Part shown: positions 6,955-47,377 of the stretch, piece by piece
Layout: every line of letters starts with the position of its first letter
How positions within the stretch are numbered: position 1 is the stretch's first letter
Origin: Escherichia phage vB_EcoM_PTE-Eco09
Strand: one strand, 5' to 3'
Length of the DNA stretch: 64,000 bases
Sequence record: PQ306574.1
Position numbers and translations under genes: made by a program
Notes under the pieces: model-generated
Seen by the model: the letters and a program-made list of their open reading frames with translations, nothing else
What the model was told of the DNA's origin: nothing
Database searches by the model: none

Positions 6955-8757
6955 TTAACCTACCCTTAGCCAACGATAGACAGTTCTGTATGGAGGAAGA
7001 ATACCCATCATTGATGGATCGGTATTTCCCTGATTAACTTTAACATTATCTTCTCGATATTTGGTAAACGCTGGACCTACTGCATCAGGGTCTACCTGAC
7101 AACCACCGATAATAATATTTCCGTTATCATCTTTTACAAGAACTCGATCGTTGCTCTGTAATTCAGGAATCATATTTTTCTTGATCTGGTATGCAACATC
7201 ACCACCGTTACCACCTGCGGTGTGTGTAGGTTGACCATGTGTATCAAGATCGTTGTTGTTTAGTGCGAAGTTTTGATCGCTTGCGTCAGAAGACCAACCA
7301 GCCAGAAATTCTCCTTCCGCATAACGTACCCATGTACCAATTCCCATATATGTCGCCGGGTTAGCTGGGTTATGCGCGTTTTCATAAATTGTGCCTATAG
7401 GATGGAAAATATCAAAGATGGAATAGATATCCATCACACGACCTGTATAATCTTCCATTGGGCGTTTAGTTGCTTGGCTTGGATTCTGGAAATCGGTATA
7501 TTCAATTCGATTTGTCAGAGTAACTTCATCTTCGTTATTAAGATAGATTTTATCTGCTTTTTCTTTAATACCGCCTACACCGTCCCATTCCATTAATGTT
7601 CCGATATCATTATTAAACCAGCGAATTGTGATAGTGTCTCTGTTATCTAGTGCTTTAGATAATTTAATACCAGTCACCACGCTGTTTTCGTCAAACATTA
7701 ATGAATAATCTTCACCAGATTCCACCCATTGACCGCCAGCAAGTACGCAGGTTTCTTCCGTTTCACCGTCAGCACCTTCACAAATAAAGGAAGGTAAATC
7801 CGCATCACCCGCTTTAATCATTTGTGTGCCGTTGATCAGCAATTCAAATGAATTTGGGTTAATAAGATCTCGCTTACTTACGCCTAATTCAGCATTAGTA
7901 AACTCTTTCTTATTAGCAAGTTCACCGACCCAAACTTCACCAGGGATGGATTCCAAAGTGGTCATTCCTGTTTCATAAACGCGGATTGTATGAGTAATAT
8001 AGCTTGACCGGAAGGATGCGATACCGTCCATATAAGTGATGATTTGAATGGTATCACCCGCCGAACAAGGGAAGCGTAATTTAATGCTTTTACCGTCAAG
8101 AGGAACAATATCACCGTTTTCACCGATTGAACCATAGTTAGAATCATCGGTTAAATCCTTGCCATAATAAAGCAAGTTACCGCGATAATACACTTCAACA
8201 TTTCGAATATTGTAAGTATTGGAACCAAACACATTAGGGAAGTCTGTTTGTCCTTCGGTTGCAATATAAACTTCCTTAGCGACTGTGCTTAAATCGGAAG
8301 TGGTGATAGTATCTACTCGTTTATTTTCGACATATTCCCAACGTCCGGGCGCACAATAAACCAATTCAACATCCATGAAATCTTTATACAACTCACGGTC
8401 GATTGGAGATCCCTTAATGGTATCACCTTGCGCTGGCTTCAACGTTACGTTATGTGCAGCCCATGAGCGCCAAACATCACGAAGTTTAATTGTTTTATTA
8501 TAATCACTCGCGCTTCCTTTAGGCAATTCAACAGAAACAGCGTTGTTCGTTGTATTAATCGCCCATGCATCACCAAAATTTGGTTTTAATACTGGTTGTG
8601 TGTGAGTTTTCCACGCGCCGGATGCATGAGGGATATCACCATCCCCCAGCTTAGTATAAAGTTCAGAAAAGTTGTCATTAATCTTTTGACCGCCTTTTCT
8701 TAGATAATCACCTGTACCGTCATCAACAACGTTACCGATATTAATTAATTGTTTCAT
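6955..8757 (-). CDS. 10: Baseplate wedge protein (T4 gp10-like)
   Basis: 600 aa (T4 gp10 602 aa); synteny. Confidence 0.85.
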   Translation of the reverse strand: MKQLINIGNVVDDGTGDYLRKGGQKINDNFSELYTKLGDGDIPHASGAWKTHTQPVLKPNFGDAWAINTTNNAVSVELPKGSASDYNKTIKLRDVWRSWAAHNVTLKPAQGDTIKGSPIDRELYKDFMDVELVYCAPGRWEYVENKRVDTITTSDLSTVAKEVYIATEGQTDFPNVFGSNTYNIRNVEVYYRGNLLYYGKDLTDDSNYGSIGENGDIVPLDGKSIKLRFPCSAGDTIQIITYMDGIASFRSSYITHTIRVYETGMTTLESIPGEVWVGELANKKEFTNAELGVSKRDLINPNSFELLINGTQMIKAGDADLPSFICEGADGETEETCVLAGGQWVESGEDYSLMFDENSVVTGIKLSKALDNRDTITIRWFNNDIGTLMEWDGVGGIKEKADKIYLNNEDEVTLTNRIEYTDFQNPSQATKRPMEDYTGRVMDIYSIFDIFHPIGTIYENAHNPANPATYMGIGTWVRYAEGEFLAGWSSDASDQNFALNNNDLDTHGQPTHTAGGNGGDVAYQIKKNMIPELQSNDRVLVKDDNGNIIIGGCQVDPDAVGPAFTKYREDNVKVNQGNTDPSMMGILPPYRTVYRWLRVG

Positions 8758-9608
8758 GTAGCAACCCCGATTTTAATAGTGTCTACGGCTTTAACTGCTA
8801 AACGAATATTTTCGCCAGTAGCCTTATACTCTGCATATACTTTATCGCCGGAACCTATGAAATAACGAACCGTGTATAATTCGTCTTCTGTCTTCTGCAA
8901 AACTGCATATTCCGTCGCATAAACTTTTCCGGCTTTAGAATCAATCATCAGTAGCGTTTCACTTGAACGCATTTTTGAACCGGATGTATTGCTAGCGGTA
9001 GTTAATAATTTGATGGAAACGTATTCTGTTTTTGCGGCAATAGCAACGTTTGTTGCTACTCCAGTTACGTTAACTGTTTTATCTAATGGCGTTGTTGTAT
9101 CGGTAAACATACTTTCGATACCCAATCGCCATGTTGCGCGACTACCTTCAACGGCAGTACACCAAACAGTGACTTTTGAAAATGGTTGTGTTATTGTAGC
9201 ATCACCGGAATAACCGCTAATAGAATCACCTGCTTGAGTTCGAATATTGAGCGGTGTCGTCGTTGAAAAGCTACCGTTACTATTTATGAATACAACACCC
9301 TCACCAACCTTTGCTTTAGGTAGAATAGCAATAAGTGCGCCTTGAGTTGTATCGATATCGTGTAGACTCCCAATCTCAACAGCGGACCCAGAGTAGCTTT
9401 GACGTGGATGTTTCTGATAGTATCCGGTTGCATGAATAACCATTCTTCCTACGCCGTGGTCTACGTCTTTAAACCGTTGATCAGCAAATGCGTCATATAT
9501 TGAATCAAAGTTATCGTTAATTTTATTGCCGCCATCATATAAGATATCGCCAGTCGATGGATTGCCGACAGTACCTGTGTCTATTCTTTTCTTTGGAACT
9601 TGTGCCAT
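8754..9608 (-). CDS. 9: Baseplate wedge / long tail fiber socket protein (T4 gp9-like)
   Basis: 284 aa (T4 gp9 288 aa); overlaps gp10 start by 4 nt; synteny. Confidence 0.8.
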   Translation of the reverse strand: MAQVPKKRIDTGTVGNPSTGDILYDGGNKINDNFDSIYDAFADQRFKDVDHGVGRMVIHATGYYQKHPRQSYSGSAVEIGSLHDIDTTQGALIAILPKAKVGEGVVFINSNGSFSTTTPLNIRTQAGDSISGYSGDATITQPFSKVTVWCTAVEGSRATWRLGIESMFTDTTTPLDKTVNVTGVATNVAIAAKTEYVSIKLLTTASNTSGSKMRSSETLLMIDSKAGKVYATEYAVLQKTEDELYTVRYFIGSGDKVYAEYKATGENIRLAVKAVDTIKIGVAT

Positions 9609-9635
9609 TGTTTAATTCCTCATGTTATGATGTAT

Positions 9636-9643
9636 TATTTATA
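9636..9643 (-). promoter_or_regulatory. T4-type late promoter motif TATAAATA upstream of gp9
   Basis: Plus strand reads TATTTATA (reverse complement TATAAATA) about 28 nt upstream of the gp9 ATG, directly after the cassette terminator. Confidence 0.55.
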
Positions 9644-9652
9644 AAATACATA

Positions 9653-9678
9653 CAAAAAAGCCGCCCACAAGGACGGCT
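9653..9678 (-). terminator. Hairpin plus U-run ending the MTase cassette (minus strand)
   Basis: AGCCGCC-CACAA-GGACGGCT stem (one bulge), then TTTTTT on the minus strand. Confidence 0.55.
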
Positions 9679-9683
9679 TATAA

Positions 9684-10523
9684 TTAAATGTCAAACAAAT
9701 CTGAGAGCGTCCCAGACTCGCTTTCCTGTTTCGGTAAGGTAATCTCCTTACTTTCTTCTATTTGTTCGTTAGGACGTGATTTAGGCGCTTCTACGGCTTC
9801 TTTCTCGTAATACCGAACCTCAACCACTTCTGTTAAAACGTTGGTACTATGCCATTCATCGCGATAGATTGATGTATCGATCCCACATCCGGCGTAAGTC
9901 ACCAAACCAGTTTGTTTGCTCCATTTTAGATATTTATTAGACTTCACTGATTCATCATAATAAGGTCTACCGGAATAAGCAAACCCAGCGGAACTAGCAG
10001 GAACAATAAAATAACCTACATCGGCAAACTTCTGGCCTAACGTCATAACCTTAAATTCAAACTCACCGCCAGTATATTCAAATACATCCTTTGTGTCTGT
10101 AGTATTGATTTTACCGAAAGGTGGATTGCTGATCACCACATCGAATTTTTCGTTTGACTCAAATTCGAATACATCGCTGGTGATCCATTCTGCCTCCGGT
10201 AATAGTCGCTTGCCAATCCGCGCAAATTCTGGATTGAGTTCGACGCATACGATCTTTTCTGGCTTACAACGATGTAACATACAAAAAGATAAGCGACCGA
10301 TCCCCGCACAAAGATCTAATACTTTTCCGGTGCAATATGCATCAATGGTAAAATCCCAGGCAAGCCATTCTGGGGTAAAGAATGCACCGGAACCGCCTAG
10401 ACCATCGCCATGATAGTTATTATAGCAAAATTCTTTTTCTTCATATGTCAATGGGCGATCTGAATTAATCAACTCCATCACCCGATCGTGTAATTTTTGT
10501 TCTTGTTTAGAAAGTCGTGCCAT
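9684..10523 (-). CDS. N6-adenine DNA methyltransferase-like protein (gamma-class motif order)
   Basis: FFTP motif, LDLCAGIG SAM-binding motif and VISNPPFG catalytic motif in that order, then a roughly 140-aa C-terminal region; no T4 counterpart at this position. Confidence 0.65.
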   Translation of the reverse strand: MARLSKQEQKLHDRVMELINSDRPLTYEEKEFCYNNYHGDGLGGSGAFFTPEWLAWDFTIDAYCTGKVLDLCAGIGRLSFCMLHRCKPEKIVCVELNPEFARIGKRLLPEAEWITSDVFEFESNEKFDVVISNPPFGKINTTDTKDVFEYTGGEFEFKVMTLGQKFADVGYFIVPASSAGFAYSGRPYYDESVKSNKYLKWSKQTGLVTYAGCGIDTSIYRDEWHSTNVLTEVVEVRYYEKEAVEAPKSRPNEQIEESKEITLPKQESESGTLSDLFDI

Positions 10524-10855
10524 TATTTAACCTTTGCTGTGACGGTAACGCTATGTCCCAAATAAACATGAGACATAAAGAACACAAAGTTTTTAAATTG
10601 CGGATTCTTACGAATCCATCGTTTCAATTTTCGAATGCAAGTTATACGATGGTCATAATTAGAATAACTAAATTCAATACCCTGTTTCATCATCTCGTGC
10701 ATTTCTTCGTATGTGTGCCATTGGTTATCATGTTTACAAAACCAATGAGTACCATAGAGTTTAGGATCTTGTGCACGTAGACCATAGTAATGCTTTTGCA
10801 TTGGGAACTTAGCTTTATTCATTGTGTAATGCAATTTAATATTTACGCGTGCCAT
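10523..10855 (-). CDS. Hypothetical protein (cassette ORF 2, 110 aa)
   Basis: ATG start; its stop shares one nucleotide with the MTase start codon; His/aromatic-rich; no recognisable motif. Confidence 0.45.
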   Translation of the reverse strand: MARVNIKLHYTMNKAKFPMQKHYYGLRAQDPKLYGTHWFCKHDNQWHTYEEMHEMMKQGIEFSYSNYDHRITCIRKLKRWIRKNPQFKNFVFFMSHVYLGHSVTVTAKVK

Positions 10856-11100
10856 TTTCTATTACCCCACATACCGAAAGTTGGATTATACACAAAATAG
10901 ATAGCTTCGTCGATAGTCTTGAATCGTTTAGTGTCATTCATGAAGTTGATACCCTCCCATAGTTCATCGGTGTAATCGGCTAGTGATGAATGAGTATGAT
11001 CGATGATCTCTCCGATCTTTTCACCGTTCGCGATCACATCCCAACCGCAAGGGGATACCTGAATTGCTTCACAATTATCTGTAAATTTACGACGTGCCAT
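10843..11100 (-). CDS. Hypothetical protein (cassette ORF 1, 85 aa)
   Basis: ATG with GGAGGA RBS; first gene after the cassette promoter; no recognisable motif. Confidence 0.5.
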   Translation of the reverse strand: MARRKFTDNCEAIQVSPCGWDVIANGEKIGEIIDHTHSSLADYTDELWEGINFMNDTKRFKTIDEAIYFVYNPTFGMWGNRKWHA

Positions 11101-11129
11101 AATTTATCCTCCGTTGTTTAGATGTGATC

Positions 11130-11158
11130 ATTATACCTTATCAGACAAGATTGTCAAC
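11130..11158 (-). promoter_or_regulatory. Sigma70-like early promoter driving the inserted cassette
   Basis: Minus strand GGTGTTGACA-N17-TATAAT, same context as the plus-strand early promoter modules at 26-61 kb. Confidence 0.6.
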
Positions 11159-11161
11159 ACC

Positions 11162-11194
11162 CAAAATAGAAAAGCCAACTCTCTCGAATTGGCT
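11162..11194 (-). terminator. Hairpin plus U-run after gp8 (minus strand)
   Basis: AGCCAA-N10-TTGGCT stem followed on the minus strand by TTTCTATTTT. Confidence 0.5.
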
Positions 11195-11208
11195 TTTAAA
11201 TCATACAC

Positions 11209-12204
11209 TTAGAACTCAAACAATACAGAAACAAGTTCTGTTTGATCTAATGACCGAACGATAGGTTGTCGGTTTTCCATGTAGATCATTTCGCCTGAGT
11301 GTGGCTCTAAGTCTTGCGGTCGGTACTTATCTTTGACCGCTTTAACGTCTGGATCGCTAGGGCGTGCTTTCTTTTCCAATGGGTTAAGGATAATGCTTAA
11401 CTGACGGAAACCAGTATTACCCACTAACGCGGTAGTTGGGAATTGCGCAGAGTCCATATAAGCCTGAAAACGCAAAGTTACTACTTTCAGCCGATAAAGC
11501 AGATTATAGTCATTATACCAGGTGGTCACATTGTCATAACCCCAACGCGCCGGATCTTGTCGCAGTTCATCGGGGAACGGTACAACAATATGTTCATTGG
11601 TGCAACGGTTGATCGCCGCATCAGGTGGAATTGTGTACAGATATTCCCAACGATATCCATCACCCATATCAATAGAATCGCCCTTTCCTACAGGTGGCGC
11701 AATTGATTCATGGGTAGGTGTCCACTTTCCGCCCAGCTTCAAACACTCTACTTTAGCGTCAATGCTTGAAATAGAGCAGTAACCGCGATCAGGAACATCG
11801 GTTACACGGTAAACCATCCAGCCGCTACCAACATCTGTACGGTTATATGGTGCTGAGTTTACGACAACAATGTCATTGATAAAGAACGTGCGCGGGTTAT
11901 CCTGTCCGGTATCACCCCAATCTTTACGAGGGATAACCGCATCAAGAAGTGATTTGTTAATCTTAACCGCCCCCATCATATGGGTCCACATGTCAACAAC
12001 ACCAGCCGTTGAATCGGTCGGATAAGGTGGGGCAAAGCCCACCTCTTTTTCGTTTTCTGACCACGGCTCCGAACGTCCAAACGTTCCATAAATTGTAATT
12101 TGATTTGCTCCATCGCCTACAGAATTATAGAAGTTCAGAAGTTTTTCTGTTCTGAATTTGCTAGTAATGATTGAGCGATAGATCACACTATTTTCATTAG
12201 CCAT
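11209..12204 (-). CDS. 8: Baseplate wedge protein (T4 gp8-like)
   Basis: 331 aa; ENSVIYRSIITSKFRTEKLLNFYNS and GFAPPYPTDS resemble T4 gp8 DSSVIYRAIVTSKFRTEKMLNFYNS. Confidence 0.9.
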   Translation of the reverse strand: MANENSVIYRSIITSKFRTEKLLNFYNSVGDGANQITIYGTFGRSEPWSENEKEVGFAPPYPTDSTAGVVDMWTHMMGAVKINKSLLDAVIPRKDWGDTGQDNPRTFFINDIVVVNSAPYNRTDVGSGWMVYRVTDVPDRGYCSISSIDAKVECLKLGGKWTPTHESIAPPVGKGDSIDMGDGYRWEYLYTIPPDAAINRCTNEHIVVPFPDELRQDPARWGYDNVTTWYNDYNLLYRLKVVTLRFQAYMDSAQFPTTALVGNTGFRQLSIILNPLEKKARPSDPDVKAVKDKYRPQDLEPHSGEMIYMENRQPIVRSLDQTELVSVLFEF

Positions 12205-15283: not shown

Positions 15284-17184
15284 TGAGCAATTGCCTCCAG
15301 ACTAATAGTTGTGTACTGAGGACGGAGATCGTTTTCAAACACGATCAAAGAACCGTCTTTAGTAAAGATGTTATCAGCAATCGGTTTAGCTGTCAACTCA
15401 ATATATGAACCAGTAAAGCGATCGCTATTGATATTCAGTTTACCCAGATCCCATGAAATAAGGTCGTCATAATGCTGAACCTCTCCAACCTCAAAGTATA
15501 GGTCCGCCCCGTCAATAACCTCTTTATCAAAATCAGTGCCGGAATAGTGCGGTAAAGCGATTGTAGAATCAACAGGGAAAGGTCCAACCAGCAATTTAGC
15601 TAAACCGGATTCTTTGTTCATTTCTGTACTTACATAATGGATTGGATATTGCTTGTCGTCCTTTTCGAAGTTGAATGAACTAGACTTGATTCCGCTCTTA
15701 TACTGGTTTAAAAACTTGATTCCAGCCATCGGTGCTTTATAGAAGTTGTCGATCTCTCGCACCATCTCGATTTCTGCACTAGAACCTATCACTGATACAT
15801 CAGCTTTGTCAATACGCGCAAGCATTTTAGACTTACTAAAGGTCTGGTTAAAAATTTCCACTTCGTCGGTATAATATGCATCAATCTGATCAATAACCGC
15901 ACCGCGCAACCACTGCTCTGATTCTGACAAGTCGTTGATTGAATAGGAAACTTTAATATTCTGTTTAATATACAGATAGTTAGGGTCAATGATGCTCGGC
16001 GTGATAGGGGCAAGGTTATATTTTGCCAGATAATCCCGCATATCTTCTTTTTGAACGGTTGTCAAGCGCAAGCCAGATTTAGGCTTAACAGCAACAAAAG
16101 CATAACCCGGTTTTTCTCGGTCGGTGAAACATTGTACCGCCTGAACAATACTACCAAAACGGCTAGACACAAAAGCCTCATAGTCGGAAGCAGTCACACA
16201 ACGACGCTGAGATTCACGCATTACCGGAGCAAGTTCACGGATACGTTCGATTGATTCAGGATCACCACCACCATCTGCACCGACATAATCACGATCATTT
16301 GTCGGATTCTCAATAATTTTAACAATAGAGATAGATGCCAATGTATCCGCGTATGTGAAATTGACAGATCCGTTAGCTTCCGCGCCTTTAGTGCTGATAT
16401 ATTCGATAACAATATTAGCACCAGTTGACGGCTTAAGTCCACCAATATAATTTGCTTCCAGTGCACCGCCAGCAGCAGATAAAGTTGATTCACCTTCACC
16501 AAAGAAGATTTCTGTATGACCGTCTACGGTTTCACGCATATAGAAAATATTACTAGCGCCAGTTGCATTAACAATGCTTTCTCGCGTCCAGTCTTTCCAT
16601 TCAGCACCGTCTACCCACAATTTAACCTGAGCGCGGTCAATATCAGGATCGCGGATCAGAATTTGTTTCTTCGGATCAAATAACATTTCTGTACGAACAA
16701 TACGACCTTGTGCGACTTTAAGCATAGGCGTATATAAACCATTTGAACCTAAAACACTCACAACGTCTTCTGTAGTCACAAACGGATAAGACGTCTGGCG
16801 ATCCACACTTGCAATAAATTTAGTTCCTCGTGGGATTCGAATACTTGCCGGATTTCGCGGATGTGTTACGTGCAACATAATTGTAGTCGATGCACTAGTT
16901 TTACTTGCTGGCAAATATCCTAAATCTTGCGCGGCTTGAACAACTGAACTACGCTTAATTGCCGTTCTGATAAAAGATTCATATAGCGCGGCGTTAGCGA
17001 ATTGCTGAATATAAAGGGTATTATATGCGAGCAAGTCCATCAATACGTTAATACCAGCACCATTAAAATCAAAATCTTTAAATTCTTCCTGGTTTCTCAT
17101 CCAGTCTGTTAATGCGCTTTTAATTTCATCAAACGTAGCAGCATTAAAAATATCAGGAATTTGTGTAATCTTTTGCTTTGTCAT
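15280..17184 (-). CDS. 6: Baseplate wedge protein (T4 gp6-like)
   Basis: 634 aa (T4 gp6 660 aa); synteny. Confidence 0.85.
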
Positions 17185-46133: not shown

Positions 46134-46565
46134 ATGGTTTATCCAACCCCTAGTAAGATTTACATTGACGATACTCATTTTCTTGTTGAAATTATGGGTA
46201 TCAAGTTTAGTGGTAATGTTAAAATTGTAGAATGGGAATTGCACGGTCAATCTGTAACCGATCATGACCATTATATCCCTTTCGGTGGCGATGATAACTT
46301 TGTTTCATTCGACCATGAAGGTTACATGAACTTTGAGCAAGACGATGTACCTTTGTATCTGGCAATGATGGATATTCCTACTAAAACAGAATATACAGAG
46401 GGTGATTGCGATTGTTGCGGATACTACAGCGTAACAGATATTAAGCTGCTATCCGGTAAAGAACTTTACAAAGAGGATCATTTCGGAAACTGCAATTTTC
46501 CGTGTGATTGGCAAGAATTTTTCGAACTGGTAGAGATTGAGCGAACTTATGTGAGGAAGGGATAA
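46134..46565 (+). CDS. Hypothetical Cys-rich protein (143 aa)
   Basis: TGAGGATTATATAATG leader; CDCCGYY and CNFPCDW motifs. Confidence 0.5.
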   Translation: MVYPTPSKIYIDDTHFLVEIMGIKFSGNVKIVEWELHGQSVTDHDHYIPFGGDDNFVSFDHEGYMNFEQDDVPLYLAMMDIPTKTEYTEGDCDCCGYYSVTDIKLLSGKELYKEDHFGNCNFPCDWQEFFELVEIERTYVRKG

Positions 46566-47377
46566 TGAAGAAAGCATTAGGTTTAATTCCCTATACTGGC
46601 AATAAGGAAAAGTTATTGCCGGGTGTTAGTAAGTATTTCCCTAAGCACTATAACCGCTTTGTTGATGCCTTTTGTGGCGGCTTGAGCGTGTCTCTGTACG
46701 TAGAAGGGGATGTGCTGGCTAATGACTATGATCACCGCTTAATTGAAGCGTACAAAGCGATTGACGAGTGTCCTGATCCGGTTTCTACGATCAAGCGGAT
46801 TATTGCCGAGAATGATTTGTCTCGTGATGATAAAGATGCTTACATGGCATTCCGTAAGAAGTATAATGAGAATCCAGATCCGCTATCTCTGTTTGTTCTG
46901 ATTCAGCACAGTTTTAGCAACATTAACCGTCATAACAGGAAGGGCGAATTTAATGCTAATTTTGGTCGCCGGACTTTTAACGAAAACGCGGTAGAGCGTG
47001 TCCTGAATTTTAAGGAAGAAAACAAAGACGGTCGAATCAGTTTTACGTCTGGTCGTTATGACGAGATCGAGATCTTGCCAGGTGATTTCGTTTATTTGGA
47101 CCCGCCGTACCTTATCACTTCTGCGGAATATAATAAGTTCTGGAGTGACGAGGAAGAGATTAAATTCTATCAGTGGGTAGAATCTATTATGGCGCGTGGT
47201 TTTCAGTTTGGTATAAGTAATGTCACGCATCATAAGGGAAAGGCAAATGATCATCTTCTTGACTTTATCAAGCGGAATGATTTAAACTGCGTCTTGTTGA
47301 ATAAGACCTATTGCCTAGATCGTTCAGGTGGCAAGTCTTCTGATACGCAAGAAGTTTATGTAACTAACGTAGATTGA
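46565..47377 (+). CDS. dam: DNA adenine methyltransferase (T4 Dam-like)
   Basis: YTGNK, FVDAFCGGLSVSL, LAND, DPPYLITSAEYNKFWSDEEE resemble T4 Dam. Confidence 0.9.
   Translation: MKKALGLIPYTGNKEKLLPGVSKYFPKHYNRFVDAFCGGLSVSLYVEGDVLANDYDHRLIEAYKAIDECPDPVSTIKRIIAENDLSRDDKDAYMAFRKKYNENPDPLSLFVLIQHSFSNINRHNRKGEFNANFGRRTFNENAVERVLNFKEENKDGRISFTSGRYDEIEILPGDFVYLDPPYLITSAEYNKFWSDEEEIKFYQWVESIMARGFQFGISNVTHHKGKANDHLLDFIKRNDLNCVLLNKTYCLDRSGGKSSDTQEVYVTNVD

Follow-up and report, generated by a model that had tools for sequence, protein, structure and literature searches.

A stem-loop-bounded cassette between baseplate genes 8 and 9 of Krischvirus carries an orphan methyltransferase with a predicted sliding-clamp-binding tail

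When the junction between baseplate genes 8 and 9 is compared across T4-type phages, the two genes are found to be neighbours in Tequatrovirus, Slopekvirus, Karamvirus and Tulanevirus, 9-63 nt apart, as the initial annotation of this DNA had assumed from T4. In the stretch analysed here, 64,000 nucleotides of Escherichia phage vB_EcoM_PTE-Eco09 (PQ306574.1; below, the window), they are split by an insert of about 1.6 kb, which contains, in this order, a terminator, a promoter, two small open reading frames (ORF85 and ORF110), a methyltransferase (MTase) gene, a second terminator and the late-promoter motif TATAAATA. The window belongs to Krischvirus, i.e. to the RB49/Phi1/JSE-like T4-type coliphages; its positions 9400-11400 match 58 phage records at 90-99% identity, all from that genus, and the cassette is present in 58/58 Krischvirus records (all records in which gp8 is at least 95% identical). 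Having its own promoter and terminator, and splitting genes that are adjacent in four genera, the cassette qualifies as a moron. Its MTase ends in a peptide that closely resembles the C-terminus of the phage DNA polymerase, and it is this predicted clamp-binding tail, together with the constancy of the frame around the gene, that concerns us here.

The genes and signals of the locus lie on the minus strand. Upstream of the cassette is gp8 (11209-12204), a baseplate wedge subunit (PF09215, E-value 5.8e-143; phrog_977) that forms the end of the late 53-5-6-7-8 transcription unit, and downstream is gp9 (8754-9608), the baseplate wedge/tail-fibre connector (PF07880, E-value 8e-40). Between them are three co-oriented genes, of the sizes and with the overlaps that had been proposed: ORF85 (10843-11100), an 85-aa ORFan with a GGAGG Shine-Dalgarno sequence that matches phrog_16603 only; ORF110 (10523-10855), a basic, His/Cys-containing ORFan that matches phrog_12630 only and whose 5' half is hypervariable; and the 279-aa MTase gene (9684-10523; phrog_3820, E-value 2.5e-116). 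ORF85 and ORF110 overlap by 13 nt (10843-10855), and ORF110 and the MTase gene share TAATG (10521-10525).

The promoter (11130-11157), a predicted early promoter of the sigma70 type, consists of TTGACA and TATAAT 16 nt apart and agrees with the consensus at 12/12 positions, so that the site proposed initially stands while its 17-nt spacer does not. Sites of the form GTTGACA-N15-18-TANNAT occur 12 times in the window versus 0.3 expected, a 40-fold enrichment, with ten of them on the early plus strand at 26-57 kb and just two, the cassette promoter included, on the late minus strand. The second late-strand site (15368-15397, GTTGACA-N17-TAACAT) sits inside gp6 at its 3' end, a short way upstream of where gp7 begins. 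Following gp8 is an intrinsic terminator (11170-11197), a 12-bp stem and then a T-run (-16.4 kcal/mol, z -3.8), and the cassette is closed by another (9658-9679), in which a 9-bp stem with six GC pairs is followed by TTTTTTG (-15.9 kcal/mol, z -5.0); both had been noticed before, at coordinates a few nucleotides off. Directly after the downstream terminator, again as noticed before, there is an exact match to the T4-type late promoter motif (9636-9643), 28 nt upstream of the gp9 ATG, which would restart transcription of gp9-gp10. Since TATAAATA is not enriched overall (4 found in the window vs 6.4 expected), it is informative by its placement alone: its only two minus-strand copies lie shortly upstream of genes 53 and 9, the places at which late units would be expected to begin. 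An Rfam scan of the region gave one sub-threshold chance match only.

Four uncultured relatives, represented by metagenomic contigs (L022-L025), have gp8 that is 80-88%, gp9 that is 56-77% and an MTase that is 64% identical to those of the window. Three of them (L022-L024) carry gp8, terminator, TTGACA-16-TATAAT, MTase, terminator, TATAAATA and gp9, with no small ORF at all, and L025 has the same frame with one unrelated 154-aa ORF (no BLAST match) preceding the MTase. At the equivalent place the promoter reads GGTGTTGACA-17-GATACT in L025 and TTGACA-16-TATAAT in L022; in both contigs there are hairpins at positions equivalent to the two window terminators, with TATAAATA directly after the downstream one. 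That the same frame is retained around an MTase only 64% identical points to selection on the frame rather than chance, and it bears out the earlier picture of a self-contained insertion with its own early-type promoter, flanking terminators and a late-promoter restart. Because frame and MTase are constant among these relatives, the small ORFs can be seen as exchangeable cargo.

Elements in which a stem-loop and an early promoter border shuffled ORFans, termed PeSLs (promoter-early stem-loops), have been described in RB49 and phi1 (Arbiol et al. 2010, PMC2839356; Comeau et al. 2014, PMC4122927). The cassette resembles them in that the hairpin at 11197-11170 sits 12 nt upstream of a near-perfect sigma70 promoter, and in that its ORFan cargo varies between close relatives (alongside the MTase, L022 has no small ORF, L025 has one and the window has two). 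It differs from them in location, published PeSLs being found mainly in hyperplastic early regions and rarely in structural blocks, whereas this one is inside a late baseplate operon; it is also oriented like the late genes, and downstream it has a terminator and a late-promoter restart as partners. The gp8/gp9 PeSL locus is not discussed in the main text of PMC2839356. As one part of the best joint explanation of these observations, a PeSL-bounded moron most likely became fixed between gp8 and gp9 in a phage ancestral to both Krischvirus and its uncultured relatives. The locus then documents a PeSL-type module that became fixed inside a core structural operon and whose cargo is still being shuffled.

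One may also consider that the cassette is transcribed by read-through as part of the late baseplate transcript, with the sigma70 site inactive and the MTase made late, e.g. for methylation just before packaging. The cassette is, after all, co-oriented with the late genes and conserved genus-wide, and the T-run of the upstream terminator is interrupted (TTTTCTATTTT) and may leak. However, such a scenario would have to accommodate a 12/12 promoter whose position is kept in divergent relatives, terminators conserved on both sides, a dedicated TATAAATA restart for gp9, and an architecture that matches published PeSLs, which were proposed to be early promoters with terminators (PMC2839356); we therefore regard it as improbable. 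According to the initial annotation, a cassette that proved to be a conserved and late-transcribed part of the baseplate operon would not be an independent insertion. Conserved it is, in 58/58 Krischvirus records, whereas its late transcription is unsupported.

As for the small ORFs, no recognisable motif had been seen in either, and neither has a match in Pfam, NCBIfam or PADLOC; a comparison with 5.8 billion proteins found only Krischvirus-level relatives. The AlphaFold2 (AF2) model of ORF110, built from a four-sequence alignment, was too poor for a fold search (pLDDT 62). The three cassette genes have markedly different distributions, with homologs of the MTase, ORF110 and ORF85 in 293, 88 and 61 phage records, respectively. 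ORF85 is found in Krischvirus and three Vequintavirus records and is absent from L022-L025, and ORF110 is found in Krischvirus, as two alleles, and in about 26 Vequintavirus records; in Vequintavirus FV3 the ORF85-ORF110 pair is part of an early ORFan block that has no MTase.

These distributions bear on the possibility, raised in the initial annotation, that the three genes form an obligate system, for instance an MTase with subunits for specificity or regulation, or an anti-defence complex of a novel kind. Co-orientation, translational coupling, a single promoter and the presence of all three genes in 58/58 Krischvirus records would fit such a system, and an MTase that lacks a target recognition domain (TRD) of its own might conceivably rely on a specificity partner. 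Yet the MTase stands alone in the frame in L022-L024 and beside the unrelated 154-aa ORF in L025, about 235 other phage records, as well as plasmids and islands, have the MTase without ORF85 or ORF110, and Vequintavirus has ORF110, with or without ORF85, in the absence of any MTase. Moreover, the two ORF110 alleles of Krischvirus are only about 72% identical to each other, although the MTase beside them is at least 95% identical across the genus. A three-gene system is thus highly improbable and that proposal is not upheld; ORF85 and ORF110 are most likely interchangeable passenger ORFans rather than subunits, which is the other part of the joint explanation given above. A restriction-modification system was also considered and was rejected on the gene distributions, with ORF85 and ORF110 matchless and no consistent neighbour of the MTase in other members of its family.

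Two observations concern the small ORFs themselves. A hypervariable patch in the 5' half of ORF110 (10638-10838), to which the difference between the two Krischvirus alleles is restricted, has 61-76% nucleotide identity to RB49 between flanks of 94-100%, and the FV3 homolog of ORF110 is 69% identical to the RB49 allele versus 59% to the window allele, which suggests either allelic replacement or diversifying selection. In the 2003 RB49 reference (NC_005066.1; L003, positions 1938-2184, corresponding to about 10940-11040 of the window) an 11-nt indel divides ORF85 into RB49p140 and RB49p141, whereas the gene is undivided in the resequenced RB49 (OZ035808.1) and in every other record. The indel is likely a sequencing error or a laboratory mutation, although it also hints that ORF85 is dispensable.

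The catalytic core of the MTase (aa 1-240; 9804-10523) is a Rossmann fold preceded by N-terminal helices, with motif X GAFFTP at aa 46-51 (FFTP at 48-51), motif I LDLCAGIG at 69-76 and motif IV NPPFG at 133-137. The gamma-class order of these motifs, X-I-IV, is as had been read initially. Among 43 homologs, G74, G76, N133, P134 and F136 are invariant and motifs X, I and IV nearly so. The AF2 model (pLDDT 85, pTM 0.80) depicts a compact Rossmann enzyme with two N-terminal helices. When compared with curated profiles, the protein passes the cutoff of PF07669 (Eco57I) narrowly (26.5 vs 25.3) and fails that of PF02384 (N6_Mtase; 15.9 vs 20.4), while the best profile matches that span motif X are all to DNA MTases, namely PADLOC mad2 (E-value 7e-17, a profile with no curated cutoff) and a Type II MTase (E-value 2e-9). 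PrmC and RsmC profiles match the Rossmann core only, far under their cutoffs, and the GenBank label "release factor glutamine methyltransferase" is therefore unsupported. In structural alignments, HsdM, lmo1582 and MmeI can be superimposed over 206-228 residues versus 168-173 for the RNA-type enzymes, and M.TaqI has the highest query-normalised TM-score (0.50); in contrast, the best match in the PDB by sequence is PH1948, a METTL5-like protein (E-value 2e-4), and METTL5/PH1948/Erm-type enzymes are 16-25% identical to the MTase over the Rossmann core. Taken together, fold and sequence indicate an N6-adenine amino-methyltransferase, and do not by themselves settle whether its substrate is DNA or RNA.

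The Dam homolog encoded at 46565-47377 of the same window is a different enzyme, as had been stated: it is D12-class (PF02086, E-value 8e-31), a PF02086 search gave no match to the cassette MTase, and a pairwise comparison of the two was non-significant. Where the window and RB49 MTases differ in amino acids (9938-10137, aa ~129-195), the differences are concentrated at residues 176-177 and 191-193. These residues lie in the loop that follows strand 5, a candidate substrate-contact loop in an enzyme that has no separate recognition domain.

The MTase family (phrog_3820) is large, comprising 340 clusters at 50% identity (E-value <= 1e-30). The 293 phage records with homologs include RB43, KP15/Slopekvirus, jumbo, Aeromonas and Sinorhizobium phages and a Brevibacterium siphovirus; in RB43 and KP15 the gene is found amid primase and helicase genes, and homologs in Enterobacteriaceae are at prophage edges, in every case with neither ORF85 nor ORF110. 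Some members are fusions: P0131 consists of the core and a C-terminal PF01555 DNA methylase fragment, and P0220 of the core and a DnaJ-type CXXCXGXG zinc finger.

Whereas bacterial and prophage homologs stop right after the core, at 236-241 aa, the versions from T4-like phages are extended. In the window, the core is followed by an acidic linker (aa 241-270; 9714-9803) that is absent from those shorter homologs, and then by the terminal nonapeptide GTLSDLFDI (aa 271-279; 9687-9713). Residues 245-279 are disordered in the AF2 model, with pLDDT of about 50 for the linker (245-270). The end of the window MTase, KQESESGTLSDLFDI, can be compared with that of the RB49 DNA polymerase gp43, YEKVASLTDLFDI, which terminates in ASLTDLFDI: TLSDLFDI and SLTDLFDI are identical at six of eight positions, and both mismatches are swaps of serine and threonine. 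The polymerase tail is itself identical in 58/58 Krischvirus records (the query used in this search had five arbitrary leading residues, and the matches cover residues 6-35, the true gp43 tail). When 129 kb of Krischvirus sequence was scanned for ORFs of 40 aa or longer, the MTase was the only one of the 742 to reach 6/8 to the gp43 tail, the next best being 3/8, and the pattern [ST]L-x(1-3)-[LFM][FY] occurs within the last 12 residues only in gp43, gp55 and the MTase (plus one antisense ORF, which we discounted as spurious). In P0002, a 67%-identical homolog, the linker has diverged while the terminal TLTDLFDI is retained. A recent copy of the gp43 3' end was rejected as the origin of the tail, as 7 of the 24 nucleotides in the terminal eight codons are different.

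The C-termini of gp43, gp55 and gp33 are known to be interchangeable ligands of the sliding clamp gp45, carried on variable flexible linkers (PMC2988020, PMC7892883), and in T4 DNA ligase, gp45 binding was predicted from a loop resembling the gp43 tail (EKASLDFLFG) and was then confirmed by isothermal titration calorimetry and crystallography (PMC6212786). The MTase has both hallmarks of such a sliding-clamp-binding motif (SCBM), namely a hydrophobic-acidic, gp43-like peptide at its extreme C-terminus and a flexible, poorly conserved linker before it. We infer that its tail is a clamp-binding peptide and a ligand of gp45, the gene for which lies mostly outside the 64-kb window. This tail, the most informative feature of the cassette, had gone unremarked in the initial annotation.

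Tails are not restricted to Krischvirus. Core ends were set by a hidden Markov model in 142 family representatives with a complete core, of which 90 are tailed and 52 tail-less, with linkers rich in Ala, Pro, Glu, Arg, Ser and Gln. The dipeptide pattern [LMF]F is present in the last 12 residues of 48 of the 90 tails, compared with 5.7 ± 2.2 when the tails are shuffled (maximum 14 in 1000 shuffles), and Q-x(1-3)-[LMF][FL] in 36 of the 90, compared with 3.3 ± 1.8; in 298 unrelated long ORFs the frequencies are 5% and 1%, respectively. Typical ends are QLSLFDAA, QLSLFA, QLALF, QLTLF, QFSLF and QQDLFGAAA, and many of the tails scored as lacking the motif end in QLALGL, QLSLLS or QLAMAI. Even P0136, a 476-aa member with a 234-aa extension, still ends in QLTLF. 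The motif by which proteins bind the bacterial beta clamp is QL(S/D)LF, usually C-terminal (PMC9690074), and the tail ends listed here match it. The surroundings that we looked up for members with the clamp motif were a mobilisable plasmid (by parAB), a chromosomal island and a phage-like contig. Since such elements would use the clamp of their host, the docking peptide seems to be matched to whichever clamp is used, being of the beta type in most members and of the polymerase type in Krischvirus. The plasmid member (L028, 10001-12836), which ends in PQLSLFA, is directly upstream of parA-parB, and the plasmid also encodes a relaxase and several toxin-antitoxin pairs.

The reading that we favour, with moderate confidence, is that the cassette is a PeSL-bounded moron with a clamp-tethered, replication-coupled orphan N6-adenine DNA MTase, probably for anti-restriction, and with the small ORFs as passengers. 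Several observations weigh against it. What speaks for early expression of the cassette is the match of its promoter to the consensus. After motif IV the AF2 model consists of loops and short elements only, with no separate TRD, and the folds closest to the MTase include rRNA enzymes. In the Pseudotevenvirus and Slopekvirus members, among them those of RB43 (L014, 17851-18585), KP15 (L015, 17138-17914), L026 and L027, a PEPEPE-type linker leads to (Q)NLFTFTIE or SDLFTFTIE, whereas the polymerases of these phages end in SLNTLFGDDW or SLNDLFGDW, so that only the [DN]LF core is common to both. About a third of the family is tail-less, the closest bacterial prophage homologs among them. The neighbours of the tail-less member in phiM12 (L017, 1-6000) encode a CCA-adding enzyme, a RelA/SpoT-family protein and a peptidyl-tRNA hydrolase (Pth2), a context that would fit an RNA-directed role. 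Finally, virion DNA of the Krischvirus TB34 contained no modified nucleosides detectable by high-performance liquid chromatography/mass spectrometry (PMC13390438), a result that makes dense methylation unlikely, although low-level or sparse N6-methyladenine may have escaped scoring.

Much of this would be expected if the enzyme were instead an N6-adenine MTase of rRNA or tRNA, akin to METTL5, Erm or TrmN6 and serving translational takeover, with a polymerase-like tail that is irrelevant or meant for another partner. Besides the METTL5-like best PDB match, the compact enzyme without a TRD, the phiM12 neighbourhood and the TB34 result, annotation offers some backing, one source naming a homolog "Predicted RNA methylase" and the RB49 record noting similarity to an rRNA m2G MTase. 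What this alternative leaves without explanation are the family-wide enrichment of clamp peptides and a tail almost identical to that of the cognate polymerase, both of which would make sense only for an enzyme acting on clamp-loaded DNA; the motif-X-spanning profile matches, the longer alignments with DNA MTases, headed by M.TaqI, and the fusion to a DNA methylase fragment in P0131 also favour DNA. An RNA substrate is therefore unlikely in our view, and DNA most likely what the MTase acts on.

Another possibility is that the tail serves as a competitor or regulator on the clamp, controlling access of gp43, gp55 or gp33 and thereby when replication or late transcription takes place, methylation being of secondary importance, or else that its similarity is convergent and non-functional. 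As gp43, gp55 and gp33 have interchangeable SCBMs that compete for the same gp45 sites (PMC2988020), an early protein bearing the polymerase's own peptide could indeed compete. However, the catalytic residues are invariant throughout the family, and the motif tracks clamp type in hundreds of divergent MTases, including those of elements that lack T4-type late transcription, which points to recruitment of an enzyme; chance similarity is excluded by the contrast of 6/8 with at most 3/8 and by the shuffling controls. We thus consider such a role of the tail very improbable.

If the cassette is indeed a moron with a clamp-tethered DNA MTase, one can envisage the following sequence of events. Early in infection, host sigma70 RNA polymerase would start at 11130-11157, while the upstream hairpin would insulate the cassette from late gp8 read-through; the downstream hairpin would close the early unit, and TATAAATA would restart gp9 late. 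The constant cargo would be an orphan, S-adenosylmethionine-dependent N6-adenine MTase of the phage/plasmid/island family, whose tail peptide would dock in the hydrophobic pocket of the gp45 sliding clamp. Held there, the enzyme would travel on clamp-loaded phage DNA and methylate adenines during synthesis, and the tethering would compensate for the missing DNA-recognition domain. The benefit would be that a phage with unmodified cytosines is shielded from host restriction, a plausible anti-restriction role. A bolder version, which is quite unlikely, would have clamp tethering limit methylation to DNA made by the element's own or co-opted replisome, giving a replication-coupled "self" label by which, in the cytosine-unmodified Krischvirus, phage nucleases that break down host DNA (denA and others) or host restriction enzymes could distinguish phage from host DNA, and which would stand in for the hydroxymethylcytosine of T-even phages; with this family, PCNA-coupled maintenance methylation would then gain its first counterpart among prokaryotes or viruses, the peptide co-evolving with the clamp.

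The cassette as such is not new, since PeSLs were described in 2010 and the MTase had been listed already in 2006 as RB49ORF143w, with weak methyltransferase Pfam matches (PMC1524935); the gene is annotated in dozens of records. What appears to be new is an orphan MTase of mobile elements with a predicted clamp-binding tail that matches the clamp in use. Like the T4 SCBMs of gp43, gp55, gp33 and ligase, this predicted tail motif is short and hydrophobic-acidic, closes the protein behind a linker that is flexible and variable, and is nearly identical to the end of the cognate gp43. It differs from them in that its carrier is a methyltransferase, an enzyme absent from the gp45 ligands listed in PMC2988020, PMC7892883 and PMC6212786. 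The predicted arrangement recalls DNMT1 and PCNA, or ligands of the beta clamp, in which a DNA enzyme is recruited to newly replicated DNA by a short clamp-binding peptide (PMC9690074), although DNMT1 maintains C5-cytosine methylation and has its PCNA-interacting (PIP) box internally, and the enzyme here is an orphan amino-MTase. A review of clamp partners mentions eukaryotic Dnmt1-PCNA only, with no prokaryotic or phage methyltransferase among clamp ligands (PMC9690074), and we found no report of one in the literature.

Gamma-class DNA MTases (M.TaqI, the Eco57I family, HsdM, Mad2 of MADS) are similar to the cassette enzyme in sequence within motifs X-IV only, and unlike them it has about 240 core residues, no C-terminal TRD and no HsdS-like partner. 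With METTL5, PH1948 and Erm it has in common the closest folds and sizes and an NPPF catalytic motif, but those enzymes have no clamp-binding tails, and the MTase family is found on mobile elements. It can further be compared with phage orphan MTases such as the Dam of T4 and RB49 and those of lactococcal 936-type phages (PMC4190342), which are likewise phage-borne, have no cognate nuclease and are expected to protect phage DNA, although it bears no relation to the D12-class Dam.

Should the tail indeed bind the clamp, recruitment by a sliding clamp would have been shown for the first time for methyltransferases of phages or prokaryotes, with a docking peptide matched to the clamp used: gp45 for T4-type phages, and the beta clamp of the host for plasmids, islands and other phages. 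This would explain how a minimal enzyme without a DNA-recognition domain keeps pace with very fast phage replication, provide a sequence signature for predicting clamp clients, and offer a testable route to restriction evasion for a T4-like phage without modified cytosines. The clamp-tail prediction is specific, readily testable and reaches well beyond Krischvirus. For annotation, an overlooked methyltransferase can be flagged in RB43-like and KP15-like phages (in the KP15 group, none beyond Dam and Dcm was reported; PMC5219037), where RB43 and KP15 encode, within about 50 kb of the replication genes, no other protein ending like [ND]LFTFTIE, and "release factor glutamine methyltransferase" labels can be corrected.

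With regard to DNA modification in this genus, no Krischvirus methylome was found in the literature, and the Durham-collection paper deals with cytosine modifications only. The Krischvirus phages SAP and TB34 are 99.96% identical, yet SAP has glucosylated hydroxymethylcytosine-type bases and TB34 does not, a difference for which no genes are known (PMC13390438). Both carry the cassette, at 97% identity to the window, and an amino-methyltransferase does not explain a difference in cytosines.

Lastly, a 14-nt direct repeat (TAAATAATGGCACG-like) is found at the starts of gp9 (9601-9614), the MTase gene (10516-10529), ORF110 (10848-10861) and ORF85 (11093-11106). The sequence ATGGCACG has four copies in the 64 kb, three of which are at these repeat-bearing start codons, and Met-Ala-Arg is the N-terminus of all three cassette proteins. 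The repeat could be a common translation-initiation context, or it could provide microhomology for in-register shuffling of genes.

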